Below, piece after piece: positions 3,885 through 30,038 of a stretch of DNA of 64,000 nucleotides; positions within the stretch are counted from its first letter, which is position 1; each line of letters begins with the position of its first letter. Where the stretch lies: assembly GCA_000004695.1 (NCBI GenBank), contig CM000150.2:2688001-2752000 (forward strand), written 5' to 3'. The notes beneath the pieces were generated by a model. The model saw only the letters and a list, made by a program, of their open reading frames with translations. It did no database searches and was not told the DNA's origin. A program made the translations under genes and the position numbers. Source of the stretch: Dictyostelium discoideum. Taxonomy: Eukaryota.

Positions 3885-6800
3885 TTATTTATAGAAAGTA
3901 CTGAGTGAATTATTGTATTTTTTGAGATGTTTAGGAAGTTCTATTGCGTGAAGAGGTGAGTTCCATTGTCTGCTAAATTGTAATAGCTTTAGCGAGATTA
4001 GTGAGTCTAATTTATTTTGTTCTTCTGGCCGTTGTTTTGATTTGATTCTTAATGTTTTGTTTATAACCGCTTGTGTCCTGTCCCATGCAGCTCTTTGTGT
4101 TTTAATTAGTTCACGTATGACTTGTTGTCTGTGAATTATTATTTCTTTTTCATCGTGAATGAGTTTATTTCTTTTGTGCCAGATTTTATCGAATATAATA
4201 GCTATTAAATTGGCTACTAGTGCAATTTGTAGATGGTTTAAAATCTTCACATTCCAGGTGTGAGTGGTGTGTCCAGACTTAGTTAGGGTGTAGTTGAAGA
4301 TTTCTTGTGTGTTTTTGATGTGGGCTTTGCAGTTGAAGAATATATGTTCTGAGGTCTCATCTTCCCCACACTGTTGGCATGGCATGTTGTATATTTTTGG
4401 TAGTGCTTTCAGTGTGTATCTCCATAATAGATCTCTACCTTTCATGTTTATTATTTTTTTGATTTCTTTAAATGGAAGGTGTTTGCTATTAATTTTGGTC
4501 ATTATTTCTTTTTGGCCAGGAGTTGGTATGAATTTGTTGTGTTCAGGAGATTGAGTTGTCATCATATCCTCGTATATTTTTTTTAATTTTGGGAGGTGTT
4601 CGTAGTGTGTTTGTTTATTTTGTGGAGTTTTTAATTGGGTCCATGCTTGCTTGCATTGCCAGTGTAGTTGTAGTTGATTTTGTTTTGTTGTTGTTTTGTT
4701 GTTGTTGTTGTTTTTGAGTTCCTCTTCCCACAGTTTTATATATGAACTAGGAGTGTTACTTACTCTTTGGTGGAGGTATCTTTCGAATAACCATGCTTTC
4801 TGTGCTAGTTCTCTTGTCTTCAGGTTCCATAAGTTTAGGCCACCATTGATATAGTTGTTTTGTCTTCTTTGTAGTGAAAGAGAGTTTTTAGATTTTGTGT
4901 TGAAAACGAATTTTACGATGTTATTTTCAATACTATTGTGTTGTGGTGTGGTGTTGATGTAAGTGTGGAACGTTAACTGAGATAGTGCATATGTTTTTGC
5001 CATTATGAGTCTGCCCATATAGGTTGATGAAGTTGAGTTCCATGTTACTAGTTTAGCTCTGATGTTGTCTGAGATTGTATTGATTTTGGATTTGATACCC
5101 TTATTGTTGAAGTCAAAGCCGAGGTACCTTTCGTTTGATTTTATGACGGTGTATAGCGTTCTGGTGTTCCATTTGAAAGTGATACACGAGCATTTGGTTT
5201 GGTTTATTTTTGCGCTGGTTGCTTGGCAAAACTTCTTGATCCATTCATTCATGAGGAAATGGTCCATAAAGTTGTATGCTATTGTTGCTGTATCATCGGC
5301 GAACTGTAGTATTTTAATGGTTTCTTTGGTTACACCATTGATGCAGCGGTCATTTATTATAGTAGTTGCCATGCATTCAACCACTAATGCGAAGATAGTG
5401 GGAGAGATAGGATCACCTTGTTTGGTTCCTCTTTTTGATGTAAAGCTTTTAGATAATGAGTTATTGATGTACACTGATGTTTCTGATTCATTGAGTAAGT
5501 TCATTATTGTGAGGACCATTTTGAGTGGTAGTTTTAGATGTGCAAGAGTACGTAGAATGGCGTTATGTGAGATTGAATCGAATGCTTTTTCAAAATCATA
5601 AAATGTTATGATTGGTTCCATATCCTCTTTTGTGTTAATCTCTCGTTTTATTATTTCTATTGTTGAGTTTAAGGTGATGATGTTATCGTGCAGTAGTCTT
5701 CTTGGTACGAATCCAGTTTGGAATGGTGAGATTATTTTGTTTAAGAACTTCAGGATCCTATTGTTGATTATTTTCGAATAGATTTTGTAATCGACATTTA
5801 GAAGTGTTATTGGTCTATAATTATCCAGGTTGTTTGGGTCTCCTTTGTTTTTATATATAGTAATCAATATCCCTTGTTTGAAGTCCTTTGGGATTGTTGT
5901 GTTCCAGAAGTGATTGTATAGTTTTGATATTATTGGTAGAATTTCATTAATGTGGTTTTTGTAAAATGTTGGAAGGAGTCCATCTTTACCAGGTGCTTTT
6001 CCTTCTTGTATTTTTTCAATGCCTAGTCTGATTTCGTATTCTTCTATTGGTTGATTAATTTCGTCCAATATCTTTTGATCAATCCTTTTATTGAATGTTT
6101 TTAGGAGTTCGTGGTGAGTGTCTTCGTTGCATTCTCTCTTCTGGTACAGGTTCTCGTAATATCTTCTTGCTACTTCGAGGATATCCTCGTTTTTTGTTAC
6201 CAAACAATTGTTGCTTGGATCTAGAATTTGAGGGATTTCATTTGTCTTTCTTTGGACTTTTAACCTTCTGGTTAAGTATTTTGATGGTGTTTCTTTGTTG
6301 TTGATGTGGGTGTTGGTTTGGTTTGCTTGTTTTATTCTTACTTGTTCCTTTAGAATATTGTTGATCTCTTCTTTAAGGAAGATTGCTCTTGAATCTTTGG
6401 CTGTTTCGAGTTTTTCTGCGAGTTCTTTTAGTTTGTTTTTGGTTTTATTGCTTTCTCTAATTTCTATATTAATTGACAGTTTCTTTATTTCATCTTTTAG
6501 TTTCAACCATTGTTCGCAAATGTTTAATTTGTACCATTTGCTGGTGTTCTCTTCGAATTTTTTATTGTAGTATTTAATTGTTTTATTAATTTTGAGGCTG
6601 GTTGAATTCATTTTGAGAGTTTCTAGGTTTTGTCTCCATAGTCTTTCTCCTTTCTTTTGTTGCTCGTATTCTGGTATTTTTAATTCAATGATTACCATGT
6701 TGTGATCAGATTTTAATTTGATTTCCTTAGTAGTAACTATTGGGTTTAGATGGAGTATCTTCTTTGAGACAAAGACCCTATCGATGGTTGATTTGTTTCT

Positions 6801-7106
6801 TGGAAATGTGATTCCATTCTTAATTTCTGTAAATTCGAATTCGTCGAAGATTGTTTTAATATATTTGTTAAGGTTATTATCCACTGAACAGTCTACATTG
6901 AAGTCTCCGGTTATAATATCGCTGTGTAGTATTTCTTCTGTGAGATTTTCCTTATACCATTCATGTCTTTCGTTTGACTTTGCTGGGGCATAAATGGTTG
7001 TGCATTTGATCTGTGTTTTTGCAATCATCCATTCGGAAGATATAATTCTTTCGTTTATTGTTTTTGTTGTTGTTTTTATTTGGGTGTTGATGATGATTTG
7101 TGACAC
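3885..7106 (-). CDS. Retrotransposon ORF2: apurinic-like endonuclease plus reverse transcriptase plus C-terminal zinc knuckle (1073 aa)
   Basis: An endonuclease-type N-terminus (..SDHNMVIIELK..) and RT blocks including FADDTATIA. The C-terminus reads CQQCGEDETSEHIFFNCKAH. The stop is immediately followed by a 61-nt oligo(A) tract on the coding strand. Confidence 0.8.
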   Translation of the reverse strand: MSQIIINTQIKTTTKTINERIISSEWMIAKTQIKCTTIYAPAKSNERHEWYKENLTEEILHSDIITGDFNVDCSVDNNLNKYIKTIFDEFEFTEIKNGITFPRNKSTIDRVFVSKKILHLNPIVTTKEIKLKSDHNMVIIELKIPEYEQQKKGERLWRQNLETLKMNSTSLKINKTIKYYNKKFEENTSKWYKLNICEQWLKLKDEIKKLSINIEIRESNKTKNKLKELAEKLETAKDSRAIFLKEEINNILKEQVRIKQANQTNTHINNKETPSKYLTRRLKVQRKTNEIPQILDPSNNCLVTKNEDILEVARRYYENLYQKRECNEDTHHELLKTFNKRIDQKILDEINQPIEEYEIRLGIEKIQEGKAPGKDGLLPTFYKNHINEILPIISKLYNHFWNTTIPKDFKQGILITIYKNKGDPNNLDNYRPITLLNVDYKIYSKIINNRILKFLNKIISPFQTGFVPRRLLHDNIITLNSTIEIIKREINTKEDMEPIITFYDFEKAFDSISHNAILRTLAHLKLPLKMVLTIMNLLNESETSVYINNSLSKSFTSKRGTKQGDPISPTIFALVVECMATTIINDRCINGVTKETIKILQFADDTATIAYNFMDHFLMNEWIKKFCQATSAKINQTKCSCITFKWNTRTLYTVIKSNERYLGFDFNNKGIKSKINTISDNIRAKLVTWNSTSSTYMGRLIMAKTYALSQLTFHTYINTTPQHNSIENNIVKFVFNTKSKNSLSLQRRQNNYINGGLNLWNLKTRELAQKAWLFERYLHQRVSNTPSSYIKLWEEELKNNNNNKTTTKQNQLQLHWQCKQAWTQLKTPQNKQTHYEHLPKLKKIYEDMMTTQSPEHNKFIPTPGQKEIMTKINSKHLPFKEIKKIINMKGRDLLWRYTLKALPKIYNMPCQQCGEDETSEHIFFNCKAHIKNTQEIFNYTLTKSGHTTHTWNVKILNHLQIALVANLIAIIFDKIWHKRNKLIHDEKEIIIHRQQVIRELIKTQRAAWDRTQAVINKTLRIKSKQRPEEQNKLDSLISLKLLQFSRQWNSPLHAIELPKHLKKYNNSLSTFYK

Positions 7107-7318
7107 CCCTTGTCCTGTTTTATCAATTGGTGCGTGGTGTGTTATTTTGTTTTTATATTGTTGATTTATTGAGTAAATTTTATTTGTTTTTATATTTGTT
7201 TCAGTTAGAAGTGCTGCGTCCAGCTTGTTGTTGTCTAATACGGTGTTTATTATGCTGGCAGATTGGATGGTGTTGGATCCTTGGACGTTCCAAACACCTA
7301 TTCTTATTGTGTTTTTCT

Positions 7319-8653
7319 TTATAGTTTTATTTGGGGTAGATTTTTATCTACCTTTTGAAGTTTCTGGTTTATTTTGTCTTCTAACTGATCTTTACTTTGT
7401 TCGTTGTGTTGTTGGTCTTGTGTGTTTGTGGGGTTTTTTGATTTACTGATTTGTTTTAGAATTTCCTTGTTGAAGTTGTCTATATCTTCATCCATTTTTG
7501 TTTTTATGCTTTTTTGTCCATATTCACCCAATTTTGGTTTGACTGGTGTTTTGTTGGTCCTGTTTGTTTTGTCTTGTTGTTTGTTTTTTGGTGTGTTTAA
7601 CAATTTACTTGGTGAATCGATAATTTTCGATGGTGTACCATAGGTTGGGCTGAAACTCATGATATGTTTTATTGGAGAGGAGAAGAACCATTGATTTGAA
7701 GGGATTGAAAGTGGGAATTCTATTTTTCTTATTGCATCAGTGTTTGGGCTGGTGAAGTCGAAGATATCATTTACCTCTCTAAGTTTTTCTTCCGTTGTTA
7801 GTCTCTTTGTTTCGCCGTGTTGTTTTATTGGTGTATTGTATGGAGATGGTGGTTCAATAGGTTTTTCTGATTTTGTTTTAATTTCTTGATTGTTTATCGA
7901 TTGGGTATTGATCTCATTCTCTATTCTTGTTAGTTCATCTACGTTTTCTAGTGATGCATCTATTACCTTTTGAGCTGTATCATCTAGGGCCATAAATGTT
8001 TTATCATTAGATGAGGAGGTGATTGGTGGGATAATGATTGTTCTTTTTCCTTGTTTTGGTATTTGTTCTGATGTAGATTGTGGTTGTTGTTCATCTGATT
8101 GTTTTTTATTTTTGTTTTCTTCTTGATTTTCTGGTAATGAGGTTTGATCTCTCCATCCTTTGTTGGAGTGACCAATTAATGTTAGATTGTCTAGTTCAAT
8201 GATAGTGTCATATTCTTCTACGACTCTTTTCACTGTTTTGATAATTAGAGTTTCGCCTTTAATTTCAGATTTAATTAGTTTACATCCTTCATTTTCTATT
8301 ACCCATTCTATTTCTGTGAGTGATTTATACCAATCGAAATCCGTATACATATTTTTTGGTCTTAGAGTGGTTATAAATTGTCCTTTTAATTCTGCATCAA
8401 ACATATTTACAAAATAGATTACTGTACTAATACTGTCTGTGAGAATTTTGAATGTATTATTACTTTTGATTAAAACATCTTTTTTGTCCAAACTTTTTTC
8501 TAAATCTTTTTTTATTTTATCGTCTGGTTCGTGATTGATGTTTATGACGTATTTGAATTGTTTTTTTTTTAATTGAGTTTTATCCACAATTTCGCTTATT
8601 TTTTGTAGGCATTTGTGTTGCTTAATATTTGTGGTGTTGTTTGTGATTTTCAT
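7319..8653 (-). CDS. Retrotransposon ORF1 (444 aa)
   Basis: The ORF is intact. Its first 67 codons lie inside the repeated 300-bp module. The same N-terminus is re-encoded by the 3' module copy (ORF 3469..3741). Confidence 0.6.
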   Translation of the reverse strand: MKITNNTTNIKQHKCLQKISEIVDKTQLKKKQFKYVININHEPDDKIKKDLEKSLDKKDVLIKSNNTFKILTDSISTVIYFVNMFDAELKGQFITTLRPKNMYTDFDWYKSLTEIEWVIENEGCKLIKSEIKGETLIIKTVKRVVEEYDTIIELDNLTLIGHSNKGWRDQTSLPENQEENKNKKQSDEQQPQSTSEQIPKQGKRTIIIPPITSSSNDKTFMALDDTAQKVIDASLENVDELTRIENEINTQSINNQEIKTKSEKPIEPPSPYNTPIKQHGETKRLTTEEKLREVNDIFDFTSPNTDAIRKIEFPLSIPSNQWFFSSPIKHIMSFSPTYGTPSKIIDSPSKLLNTPKNKQQDKTNRTNKTPVKPKLGEYGQKSIKTKMDEDIDNFNKEILKQISKSKNPTNTQDQQHNEQSKDQLEDKINQKLQKVDKNLPQIKL

Positions 8654-9034: not shown

Positions 9035-9089
9035 TTTTTCCAAAAAATAAAAACCCATCTAAGTAAAAAAATTTTAATTTCACAACAAT

Positions 9090-9162
9090 GCCCGGCTAGC
9101 TCAGTCGGTAGAGCGCCAGACTCTTAATCTGGTGGTCGGGGGTTCGAGCCCCCCGTTGGGCG
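9090..9162 (+). tRNA. tRNA-Lys (anticodon CUU)
   Basis: GCCCGGCTAGCTCAGTCGGTAGAGCGCCAGACTCTTAATCTGGTGGTCGGGGGTTCGAGCCCCCCGTTGGGCG. It has a 7-bp acceptor stem, D-loop AGTCGGTAGA and T-loop GGTTCGAGCC. The anticodon loop is ctCTTaa. An aatttttc terminator follows. Confidence 0.9.
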
Positions 9163-9194
9163 AATTTTTCTAAAATAAAACATAAGTACAATGG

Positions 9195-10641: not shown

Positions 10642-10671
10642 ATGCGACGTATTATATCATTTATAAAAAAG

Positions 10672-10743
10672 CTCCCCATTCGGGAATCGAACCCGAGGTA
10701 CCAGTGTGAAAGACTAGAGTGTTACCGACTACACCAATGAGGA
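10672..10743 (-). tRNA. tRNA-Glu (anticodon UUC)
   Basis: The minus strand reads TCCTCATTGGTGTAGTCGGTAACACTCTAGTCTTTCACACTGGTACCTCGGGTTCGATTCCCGAATGGGGAG. It folds as a cloverleaf with an anticodon stem ctagt/actgg and loop ctTTCac. A TTTTTT terminator follows. Confidence 0.9.
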
Positions 10744-27189: not shown

Positions 27190-27232
27190 TTAAGGGAAAT
27201 CACCAAAATCTGGTTCGTCGTCAATTTGTTGC

Positions 27233-27263
<31 letters not shown>

Positions 27264-28197
27264 GAGGCTGTTGTTGTTGTTGTTGTTGTTGGAATTGAGG
27301 GATGGCAGGGTTTTTCATTGGAAAACTTGGAGCAGTTTTTGGTGGTGAAGAGGTTGGTTTTGGTGGCACAGTGCCTAGTGATGGACTTGGTTTATTTTGT
27401 TGAAATTGAGGTTGTGGTGGAGGTTGTTGTTGTTGTTGTTGTTGTTGTTGCTGTTGTTGTTGAACCATTGGCTTTGCTGGTGCCTTTTGTTGTGGTTGTT
27501 GTGGTGGTGGTTGCTGTGGTTGTTGAGCTTGTTGTTGTGGTGCATTTTTAGCAGCAGCAGCAGCTTGAATCATAGCTTGTTTTTGCTTTTTCTTTTCATT
27601 TGTAACTAATACACCCATATTTTTATTGACATCTTTGTCATATAATGAATTACCAATACGATCACCAAACAATCTCAATGTTCTCTTTCTTGCATCTGAT
27701 ACTGCTTCCTGTAAAAATAATAATTAATAACAATAGTAATAATAAATTAGGGGGGTGTGTTAGATAAATGAATAATAGGATTGATTAATTGAATGAATTT
27801 ATTTATTTACCTTTTTAGCATTTTCAATAGCACTACCTTTACTGGGATGTTCAGTTGAACCATAACCAACATCCTCTTGAAAAGTACCATCTTTTAAAGT
27901 GACTCTAACGATTGCAGTTACACCAACTCTATAACGTACAATACCATTTACATTAACCTCTTCAATGAAATCTGGTGATAACTCTTTAATTGATGAACTC
28001 CAACCATTGAATTGAAATATTTTATTTGCTAAATTAATTGCTTTCCATGATTCTAAATATGATAATGTTGTACCACCAGGTCCTTGTCTAGTAGATACAT
28101 CTTCCAATGGTATATTTTCACTTAATATTTGTGAAATCGATGATATCTCTTCCTCTGTGAATGCTACTTGACCAAAAACTGTATTCATTTGTTCCAT
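27190..28197 (-). CDS. rad52: RAD52 homolog (about 301 aa). Exons complement(27811..28197) and complement(27190..27708). Intron 27709..27810.
   Basis: The N-terminal domain matches RAD52 closely (..LANKIFQFNGWSSSIKEL..IVRVTLKDGTFQEDVGYGSTEHPSKGSAIENAKK | EAVSDARKRTLRLFGDRIGNSLYDKD). The donor is GTAAAT and the acceptor is TTTTTACAG. The tail is rich in Q/P. Confidence 0.8.
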
Positions 28198-28336
28198 ATC
28201 TTTATATTATTTATTTATTTATTTATTATTTACAATTACTATTTACAATTTATTTATTTATTTATTATTTGTTTATTTATATATTTGTTTTTCTTTTTTT
28301 TTTTAAAATTATGTTTTTGTGGCGCCATTAAATTTT

Positions 28337-28685: not shown

Positions 28686-29072
28686 ATACCAAAATAAAAT
28701 AAAATAAAATAAAATAATTAGAAAACTATTTACATTTGTTAATTTAAAATTTATTTACACTTGTTTTTTTTTTCACAAACAATTTTGTATTTTTTTTTTT
28801 TATTTTTTTTTTTTCCTATGGAACATTATCTTTGTTTAATTCACCTAATAATTTAATTCTTTTCTGATTGAGTAAATGCACAATGTATTCTAATGAATCT
28901 GGGTATGTTACTAACAAATCCTTCTGCAGATGTTTTTTTTTTTTTTTGCTTGTTGTGAGCGTTCAGTCACCGAATCTAAATATTCGTTGTCTTGTGGATT
29001 GATATTTGGTTTTTGAGCACCTTGGATTAAATTTGTAGGGCCAGTATGGCAAACACAATTCAGCTCAATGGC

Positions 29073-29199
29073 AGCACTAGATGACATAACCTTCTTTTTT
29101 AAATTGTGATCGCTAGATATCACTTTGGAAAGTACGTTATTTTCGAAGGTAGTATCTAGTGGTCACAATTTAAAAAAGAAGGGTATGTCATCTAGTGCT
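29073..29199. repeat. Imperfect inverted repeat of about 46 bp. Arms 29073-29119 and 29153-29199 with 3 mismatches. Loop 33 nt.
   Basis: The left arm is agcactagatgacataaccttcttttttaaattgtgatcgctagata. The right arm reverse complement is agcactagatgacatacccttcttttttaaattgtgaccactagata. Confidence 0.75.
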
Positions 29200-30038
29200 T
29201 ATTTTTTACATGAATTTTTAATTCTGGTGACTCAGCTGCTTGGTATTTAACTACTGCATATTTTAAACAATCTATTATTTTAAATAAAGAGTTGGTTTTT
29301 TTTTTTTTATTTTAAAAAATAAAAACTTACTGATTTTGTGATTATAGGCGTTTAAACGATTTTCAGCTTCAATTCTCTTTTCATTTTCTTCTTTTTTTTT
29401 ATTGATTTCTAATTCTTTTCTTCTACCTCCAACTTTTTTTTCCAACTCTTTTTGTTTTTGTATTTCTTTATTCATTTTATTGAGCTTACCTAGACGTTTG
29501 ATTATTTCATACGCTTAGTCTTCATGTAATAATTTTTTTTTGCATAAATTGAATGAATTACACTTTCTTTCCAATTGTCAATCGATTTTGAGAAAATCTC
29601 TTTCCTCTACCGGTTTTCTTAGAATTTAGTTTTTGAAGGTCTTTTTCAATATTCTCTTTACATGTTTTAGTTTCAAAATGACAATTTTCACAATAATCTT
29701 CACTTTCCGAAAATGATTCAGCTTCAAATCAATTTCTAAATTATCTTTTTCCTTTTTTTTAATTAAATGAATTTGATTATAAAAAATAACTAATTTTTTT
29801 TTTTAAAAAAATTTTTTTTTTTCATATCTGAACACTCATGCTGCATCATCATCTTATGAACTGATTCAATTAACTATTTTTTTTATAAAAAAAAAAAAAA
29901 AAAAATTGAAAATAAAAAAAAAAATGAATTTTTTTTTTATTTTAATTTTTAATTTTTAATTTTTTTTTTTTTTATATTATCTGTAATCAAATTAACAGTA
30001 AAAAAAAAAAATAATAATAATAATAATAATAATATAAT

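Follow-up and report, generated by a model that had tools for sequence, protein, structure and literature searches.

In the model of Allen et al. 2004, the young Arabidopsis microRNA (miRNA) genes MIR161 and MIR163 are said to have formed by inverted duplication of protein-coding sequence, and quasi-palindrome and short template-switch mutations are reportedly the subject of Ripley's model and of Loytynoja & Goldman 2017. Template-switch events are usually described as clusters of mutations or as 'corrections' of palindromes of a few bases. Among the miRNA loci of Dictyostelium discoideum, some occur in multiple copies within the thug-S repeat, which resembles a miniature inverted-repeat transposable element (MITE) (Avesson et al. 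2012, as cited in Liao et al. 2018, RNA Biol 15:937, PMC6161686), and one, ddi-mir-1184, is recorded in an exon of the annotated pseudogene DDB_G0283997 (Table S1 of Liao et al. 2018). Here we analyzed a 64,000-nucleotide stretch of D. discoideum DNA (GenBank assembly GCA_000004695.1, contig CM000150.2, positions 2,688,001 to 2,752,000 of the forward strand), referred to as the window, in whose own numbering positions are given. We find that a long hairpin at 29073-29199 is the already published precursor of ddi-mir-1181, that its 'intergenic' primary transcript comes from a dead protein-coding gene, and that one arm of the hairpin is, by alignment with paralogues, an inverted copy of the exon sequence that forms the other, for which a snap-back template switch would account. 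Taken as a whole, this explanation is in our judgment very probable.

A repeat search of the window recovered a palindrome with arms at 29073-29134 and 29138-29199, each of 62 nt, 87% complementary and separated by a gap of 3 nt. The initial annotation, made from the sequence alone, had described a 46-bp inverted repeat around a 33-nt loop; the repeat is real and corresponds to the outer 46-47 nt of the arms, their best-paired part (44/47 positions Watson-Crick, or 46/47 when G.U pairs on the plus strand are counted), but the full arms are longer and most of the supposed loop is itself paired. The description of the hairpin as very stable was borne out. When positions 29060-29210 were folded as RNA, the plus strand reached −84.9 kcal/mol (z = −17.1) and the minus strand −66.4 kcal/mol (z = −13.4), and none of the 200 dinucleotide-preserving shuffles matched the energy of either strand. 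Folds of the expressed (minus) strand gave z-scores of −13.4 and −10.5. The 106-nt precursor folded at −40.7 kcal/mol, equivalent to −0.38 per nt and thus below the −0.2 kcal/mol/nt used as a folding-energy criterion for miRNAs; Liao et al. 2018 give −0.52 per nt for the same precursor. The window is AT-rich, with a GC fraction of ~0.13-0.35 per 2-kb bin.

We then identified the hairpin by comparing pieces of its arms with the supplements of Dictyostelium miRNA papers. The palindrome matches exactly the mir-1181 precursor, AAAAAATAAGCACTAGATGACATACCC...CATCTAGTGCTGCCATTGAGCT, of Supplementary Fig. S2 in Liao et al. 2018, and of the three explanations put forward in the initial annotation, a small-RNA precursor is therefore the one that holds. 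Arm 13-mers had no match in paper full texts, the sequence being found solely in supplementary files, and the hairpin sequence was not found in the text supplements of Edelbroek 2024; a search of the whole window against Rfam at gathering thresholds returned two tRNAs only, mir-1181 being without an Rfam entry. Published chromosome 1 coordinates convert to the window with an offset of exactly 2,688,000, anchored on the transcription start site (TSS) motif of the primary transcript. By this conversion the precursor, listed on the minus strand at DDB0232428:2717082-2717187 (Table S1), falls at 29082-29187, inside the full palindrome that forms the pre-mir-1181 stem-loop. The predicted primary transcript, pri-mir-1181, delimited from poly(A) RNA-seq coverage (DDB0232428:2716790-2717868, Table S3), occupies 28790-29868 on the minus strand, ~1.08 kb, and its T-rich TSS motif, TTATTTTTTTTTTTACTGTTAATTTG (2717988-2718014, Table S3), marks a putative Pol II start at 29988-30014, also on the minus strand. 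The locus is thus the same as the mir-1181 of Liao et al. 2018 in precursor, strand, coordinates, 5p and 3p sequences, pri-miRNA extent and TSS motif.

Both published mature strands (Fig. S2 and Table S1 of Liao et al. 2018) map exactly to the minus strand of the hairpin, miR-1181-5p, TTTTTTAAATTGTGACCACT, at 29158-29177, with a 21-nt isoform reaching 29157, and miR-1181-3p, the star strand, GCGATCACAATTTAAAAAAGA, at 29093-29113. We assessed them by the criteria that Kozomara & Griffiths-Jones 2014 set for high-confidence miRNAs, in the form used by Liao et al. 2018, under which a duplex should yield reads from both arms, carry 3' overhangs of about 2 nt and be at least 60% paired. Reads derive from both arms, 18 of the 20 duplex positions are paired, and the overhangs measure 2 nt for 3p and 1 nt (20-mer) or 2 nt (21-mer) for 5p, as expected of RNase III cleavage. 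According to Liao et al. 2018, the stem is cut into ~21-nt duplexes in a DrnB-dependent manner, with a 20-21-nt 5p strand dominant (842 5p reads in the wild type versus 115 in drnB-); 98% and 95% of reads share one 5' end, the figure for the 5p arm being 98%. Expression is ~10 reads per million (rpm) and changes modestly over development, from 7.65 to 11.29 rpm. A distance of 22 nt between the stem base and the first nucleotide of 5p places this strand in the second dicing register, and minor published reads beginning AGCACTAGATGACATACCC represent the first.

Liao et al. 2018 give the genomic context of mir-1181 as 'Intergenic' (Table S1). We find that this supposedly intergenic pri-miRNA is transcribed from a decayed paralogue of a small, Dictyostelium-only orphan gene family. 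Protein matches, DNA alignments and frame translations place the decayed gene at 28816-29755 on the minus strand, with no Pfam domain; it is contained within the RNA-seq-defined extent of pri-mir-1181, so that the old gene's transcript serves as the pri-miRNA. The initial annotation had pointed to a short minus-strand open reading frame (ORF) at 28911-29123, running through the left arm, and to broken minus-strand ORF pieces at 29275-29720 with an in-frame stop. Both features exist, the stop being a TAA at 29515-29517, and the broken pieces belong to the decayed family member, although the peptide quoted for them, 'ESVIHSIYAKKKLLHED', joins two frames, the family-homologous frame reading '..KCNSFNLCKKKLLHED*AYEII..'.

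Translated minus-strand fragments of the locus match three Dictyostelium proteins: P0002, an intact 291-aa paralogue (E = 5.5e-22); P0003, a family relative from D. cf. discoideum; and P0001, the GenBank model of the same locus in another D. discoideum strain, where the corresponding contig region (L001) is 99.87% identical to the window over 6.7 kb and the hairpin is identical. A HMMER search with P0002 against 1.84 billion representatives returned five proteins, all from Dictyostelium, and a sixth family protein, P0015, was found as a cluster member. The relatives of the host gene are P0002, P0015, P0007, P0008 and P0003; no Pfam domain was found in the family proteins, and no member comes from the AX4 annotation. 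The locus of P0003 (L003) was considered as an orthologue and dropped, as it is non-syntenic and without the hairpin region, and we treat it as a family relative only.

Against these relatives, the copy in the window (AX4) carries many disabling lesions. The start codon used in L003 and in L009, a genome discussed below, has changed from ATG to AAG (29753-29755), and the one used by P0002 from ATG to ATT. A nonsense TGA at 29578-29580 stands in place of a Cys codon of the relatives, and the TAA at 29515-29517 in place of Gln or Glu; a 1-nt frameshift follows GATTTTC, and a further frameshift falls in the A-run at 28933-28947. The family stop codon lies at 28816-28818. Altogether, the start codons are lost and the reading frame is interrupted by two nonsense codons, at least two frameshifts and an insertion of 50 nt. 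The initial annotation saw no credible intron among the ORF pieces, but one is present, a family-conserved intron of 59 nt at 29272-29330 on the minus strand (GTAAGT...AATAG), whose position and splice signals are shared by the family loci L002, L010 and L011; its removal does not eliminate the stop codon. Since the family intron has been kept, the host belongs to the duplicated rather than the retro-processed class of pseudogenes.

In GenBank, the L001 counterpart of window positions 28816-29475 on the minus strand (L001 3001-3660) is annotated as ACTFIT_007879, the source of P0001, in which a 145-aa ORF is rescued by means of two 'introns'. Were this model correct, the locus would still be protein-coding and the hairpin a genuine, mirtron-like intron. 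A GT...AG pair, used by the NCBI model, does flank most of the palindrome (CAT/GTAAAA...AAAAAG/AAG), and D. discoideum does have intronic miRNAs, mir-1180 and mir-7102 among them (Liao et al. 2018). However, the model requires a second 'intron' of 49 nt that skips the A-run frameshift in a region where relatives are coding (P0003 'SVIEHPQQAKKK'), it begins downstream of the two nonsense codons and the lost start codons, and the 'intron' that contains the hairpin holds native coding sequence homologous to a paralogue exon ('FENNVLSKVISSDHNLKK'). The supposed ORF also contains indels of 10, 5, 5, 5 and 1 nt between AX4 and L008, a second genome discussed below; as these are not multiples of 3, they indicate no frame constraint on the host gene. 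Both dictyBase and Liao et al. 2018 treat the locus as intergenic. We therefore regard a surviving coding gene with a mirtron-like intron as highly unlikely, and the GenBank model is almost certainly an annotation artefact.

Having established the host as a decayed family member, we turned to the paralogues for the ancestral state of the hairpin. In three intact, independent paralogues, L002, L010 and L011, the coding sequence runs uninterrupted through the junction ...GTAAAAAAAGAA / TTTGAAAAC... (K-E-F-E-N), and AX4 carries 50 additional nt exactly there, at 29148-29197 on the minus strand (boundaries ±2 nt). This derived insertion makes up most of the 5' arm and brings in stops and a frameshift; it contains the mature miR-1181-5p, so that the abundant miRNA is made from the new arm. 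It is identical at 45 of 50 positions to the reverse complement of 29075-29124, native minus-strand coding sequence ~25 nt downstream that encodes ..SKVISSDHNLKKKVMSSSA.. and is collinear with the paralogue coding sequence 'SKVFSGEQSLAKKAVSSSA' of P0002. This template makes up the 3' arm, with miR-1181-3p inside it. Copy and template are separated by 23 nt, at 29125-29147 on the minus strand, which form the tip of the hairpin and constitute a native quasi-palindrome, TTCGAAAATA-ACG-TACTTTCCAA, whose halves are complementary at 8/10 positions in AX4 and at 6-7/10 in the paralogues. The flanking sequence is intact, with none lost at the insertion. By these alignments, the 3' arm and the hairpin tip are ancestral exon, and the 5' arm was newly made as an inverted copy.

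The same alignments bear on a second candidate of the initial annotation, in which a MITE-like or thug-S-type palindromic element would have inserted, broken the gene and given rise to the miRNA. The multicopy loci in thug-S provide a precedent for such an origin, and the palindrome, resembling terminal inverted repeats, does sit inside a broken gene. Against it, the 3' arm and the tip are collinear with the coding sequence of the paralogues, the surplus being confined to 50 nt, and these 50 nt are the reverse complement of the native sequence beside them. No target-site duplication was found at the palindrome flanks, GCTCAATGGC and TATTTTTTAC, which share nothing, or around the 50-nt insertion. 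A search of the window for further copies of the arms or the ORF fragments gave only the self-inverted match and low-complexity noise, no copy was seen in the non-orthologous loci examined, and Liao et al. 2018 list a single genomic locus. We consider an inserted element exceedingly improbable. The thug-S loci and mir-1181 are alike in that palindromic DNA gives rise to DrnB-dependent small RNAs, and differ in that mir-1181 is listed at a single locus, lacks a target-site duplication and has arms made of host coding sequence. The third candidate, a recombination-prone palindrome, found no specific support, although the L009 lineage has lost the region.

The simplest mechanism for the inverted copy would be a snap-back template switch at the native quasi-palindrome, with 29125-29147 as the proposed nucleation site. 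During replication, a nascent strand that had just copied the 10+10-nt quasi-palindrome (FENN..LSK codons) would fold back on itself, copy ~50 nt using itself as the template, and rejoin the original template by way of a 2-nt AG microhomology. The product would then read, in order, upstream sequence, inverted copy, quasi-palindrome and native template, which is the order seen. In a single step the exon would have become a long, near-perfect hairpin, which could then have been adopted by the Dicer-like machinery.

Set against the systems outlined above, mir-1181 resembles the young plant miRNAs of the Allen et al. 2004 model in that both arms are homologous to a coding family beyond the mature miRNA. 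The two also share a long, near-perfect stem, a lineage-restricted distribution, fast evolution, a Pol II transcript and processing by a single Dicer-like enzyme. They differ in that mir-1181 would stem from a 50-nt intra-exon snap-back within the gene rather than from the inverted duplication of part of a gene at a separate site, and in that the available paralogues show no sign of the founder-family targeting that the model predicts. As in template-switch mutations, the inverted copy adjoins a pre-existing quasi-palindrome, with no loss of flanking sequence and a short microhomology at the junction; unlike the events usually described, this one copied 50 nt and its product is a Dicer substrate. 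With ddi-mir-1184 the locus shares a position in a pseudogene, the two being different loci with no sequence relationship, and this second case suggests that D. discoideum miRNAs have arisen repeatedly from transcribed pseudogenes.

To date the hairpin, we surveyed the syntenic interval between a Rad52-family gene and SPC25 in six other genomes, with SPC25 as the anchor. This spacer measures ~1,835 nt in the window. It is shorter in D. firmibasis (L004, 560 nt), D. dimigraforme (L007, 553 nt) and the D. cf. discoideum genomes ACTFIZ (L005, 1,544 nt) and ACTFIY (L006, 1,004 nt), and none of these four spacers holds any trace of the host pseudogene or the hairpin. In the 'D. discoideum' genome GCA_054859385 (L008), which is ~83-89% identical to AX4 in this region, the spacer of 1,434 nt contains the pseudogene, without the part corresponding to 29322-29722, and the hairpin, in which the 50-nt insertion recurs with unchanged boundaries; the L008 palindrome has 62-nt arms and folds at −62.5 kcal/mol. 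In 'D. discoideum' GCA_054859355 (L009), ~94% identical to L008, the spacer of 1,512 nt retains just remnants of both pseudogene ends, and the hairpin is deleted. The hairpin is thus found in AX4, in the second D. discoideum strain (L001) and in L008, a narrow distribution. Its presence with the same insertion in AX4 and L008, together with its loss in L009, points to a single origin before the split of AX4 from L008/L009, followed by at least one loss.

We next compared AX4 and L008 for signs of constraint. The hairpin differs at 8 of 127 positions (6.3%), the flanking pseudogene at 4.5-9%. Mature 5p differs at 4 of its 20 positions, all in the 3' part, and 3p carries two differences. The differences in 5p form a tight cluster, GACCAC in AX4 (29158-29177) against CTTCGC in L008 (4516-4535), where the counterpart of 5p reads UUUUUUAAAUUGUCUUCGCU; the adjoining stem is identical, and one complex mutation may account for the GAC>CTT cluster. 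When the mature miRNA was tested for purifying selection, the outcome was reversed: of the 8 substitutions in the hairpin, 6 fall within the miRNA duplex (Fisher p = 0.014, or p = 0.085 with the GAC>CTT cluster counted as one event), and we draw no claim of selection in either direction. The AX4-L008 comparison reveals neither purifying selection on the mature sequence nor coding constraint on the host, in agreement with the report that only mir-1177 among D. discoideum miRNAs is conserved in D. firmibasis (Edelbroek et al. 2024). Judged by these comparisons, mir-1181 is evolutionarily young and probably weakly constrained.

An origin by inverted duplication predicts that a miRNA should target its founder family. 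This prediction did not hold for miR-1181-5p: no site with ≤4 mismatches was found at the homologous position in the paralogues fetched, all from non-AX4 genomes, and in L002 and L010 that position matches the miRNA at ~10/20 nucleotides. The strand is complementary to its own 3' arm with 2 mismatches, and the rest of the 64-kb window contains no ≤4-mismatch site outside the hairpin. In an alternative reading, to which we give an even chance, the palindrome is a neutral mutational scar in a pseudogene and its small RNAs are incidental Dicer by-products with no regulatory role. The divergence within mature 5p, a hairpin that diverges no less than its flanks, its deletion in L009 and absence from four sister genomes, the lack of a paralogue target site and the low abundance all fit such a reading, as do the rapid turnover of amoebozoan miRNAs and the absence of a visible developmental effect on loss of drnB (Edelbroek et al. 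2024). On the other side stand the precision of processing, seen in the shared 5' end of the 5p-arm reads, its dependence on DrnB and the modest developmental change in level. Reading the small RNAs as by-products questions their function only and is compatible with the identity of the locus as mir-1181 and with the explanation given here for its origin. Most likely, mir-1181 is a young, low-abundance but precisely processed miRNA under weak or no selection.

Several observations count against our account of the locus. The plus strand, which does not carry the miRNA, folds better than the expressed strand (−84.9 versus −66.4 kcal/mol). The six transition mismatches between the arms include five that are G.U on the plus strand and C.A on the expressed minus strand, which gives the non-miRNA strand its advantage of ~18 kcal/mol; this strand bias could be due to chance, to strand-biased C>T mutation or to selection for bulges. 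Very few reads support 3p, 2 in the 2018 data and 17 once older SOLiD reads are added, and mir-1181 reached the high-confidence criteria solely after this pooling (Liao et al. 2018). As for its origin, the snap-back mechanism is deduced from the end product only, and a 2-nt microhomology and an 8/10 quasi-palindrome are weak signals. Lastly, across the paralogues and the 64-kb window scanned, no target can be named for miR-1181-5p.

The main text of Liao et al. 2018, in which the locus is 'Intergenic', contains neither the word 'pseudogene' nor the word 'duplication', and accordingly the host pseudogene, its family and the inverted-duplication origin are not described there; in the literature we searched, a pseudogene host and a snap-back inverted-duplication origin for mir-1181 appear not to have been described. 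The analysis thus corrects the 'intergenic' label of mir-1181 and flags a GenBank model that treats the hairpin as an intron. It also amounts to the rediscovery of a catalogued miRNA gene, which validates reading miRNA precursors from sequence alone in an 80% AT genome. Beyond this, it offers a concrete mechanism of miRNA birth, with the ancestral state kept in paralogues and both the presence and the later deletion of the hairpin visible in sister lineages. We see somewhat better than even prospects for the broader proposal that mir-1181 represents miRNA birth in Amoebozoa at nucleotide resolution, in which one snap-back of 50 exon nt in a transcribed, decaying orphan gene would have created an instantly Dicer-competent 62-bp hairpin. 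If this is true, the inverted-duplication route of miRNA birth described in plants would extend to a third eukaryotic supergroup, and transcribed pseudogenes together with template-switch mutations would suffice to produce miRNAs, in keeping with the rapid turnover of dictyostelid miRNAs.

With regard to the neighboring genes, the TSS motif of pri-mir-1181 and the start codon of SPC25 (30039, plus strand), which is transcribed divergently, are ~25 nt apart. A bidirectional promoter region probably serves both the dead gene with its miRNA and the housekeeping gene SPC25, and may be the reason that the pseudogene continues to be transcribed. Directly downstream of the pseudogene is the Rad52/Rad22-family gene, at 27197-28204 on the minus strand (Pfam E = 3.9e-36), and the synteny of Rad52 and SPC25 is kept in 7/7 Dictyostelium genomes examined. 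In the D. cf. discoideum genome ACTFIY, the same spacer carries an unrelated hairpin in lineage-specific sequence (L006 4472-4575), with 39-nt arms, 90% complementary, a 26-nt loop and RNA folding energies of ~−35 kcal/mol (z = −7.8 and −6.0), which may represent a young hairpin locus of independent origin.

Elsewhere in the window, a GC-richer block at 3885-8653 on the minus strand contains a 1,073-aa ORF with a reverse-transcriptase domain (RVT_1, E = 2.5e-33) and, upstream of it, a 444-aa ORF. The block adjoins two tRNA genes, tRNA-Lys(CTT) at 9089-9163 on the plus strand and tRNA-Glu(TTC) at 10671-10743 on the minus strand, and its 5' end faces the tRNA-Lys gene at a distance of ~430 nt. 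From this content and position, the block looks like a TRE5-type, tRNA-targeted non-LTR (long terminal repeat) retrotransposon.

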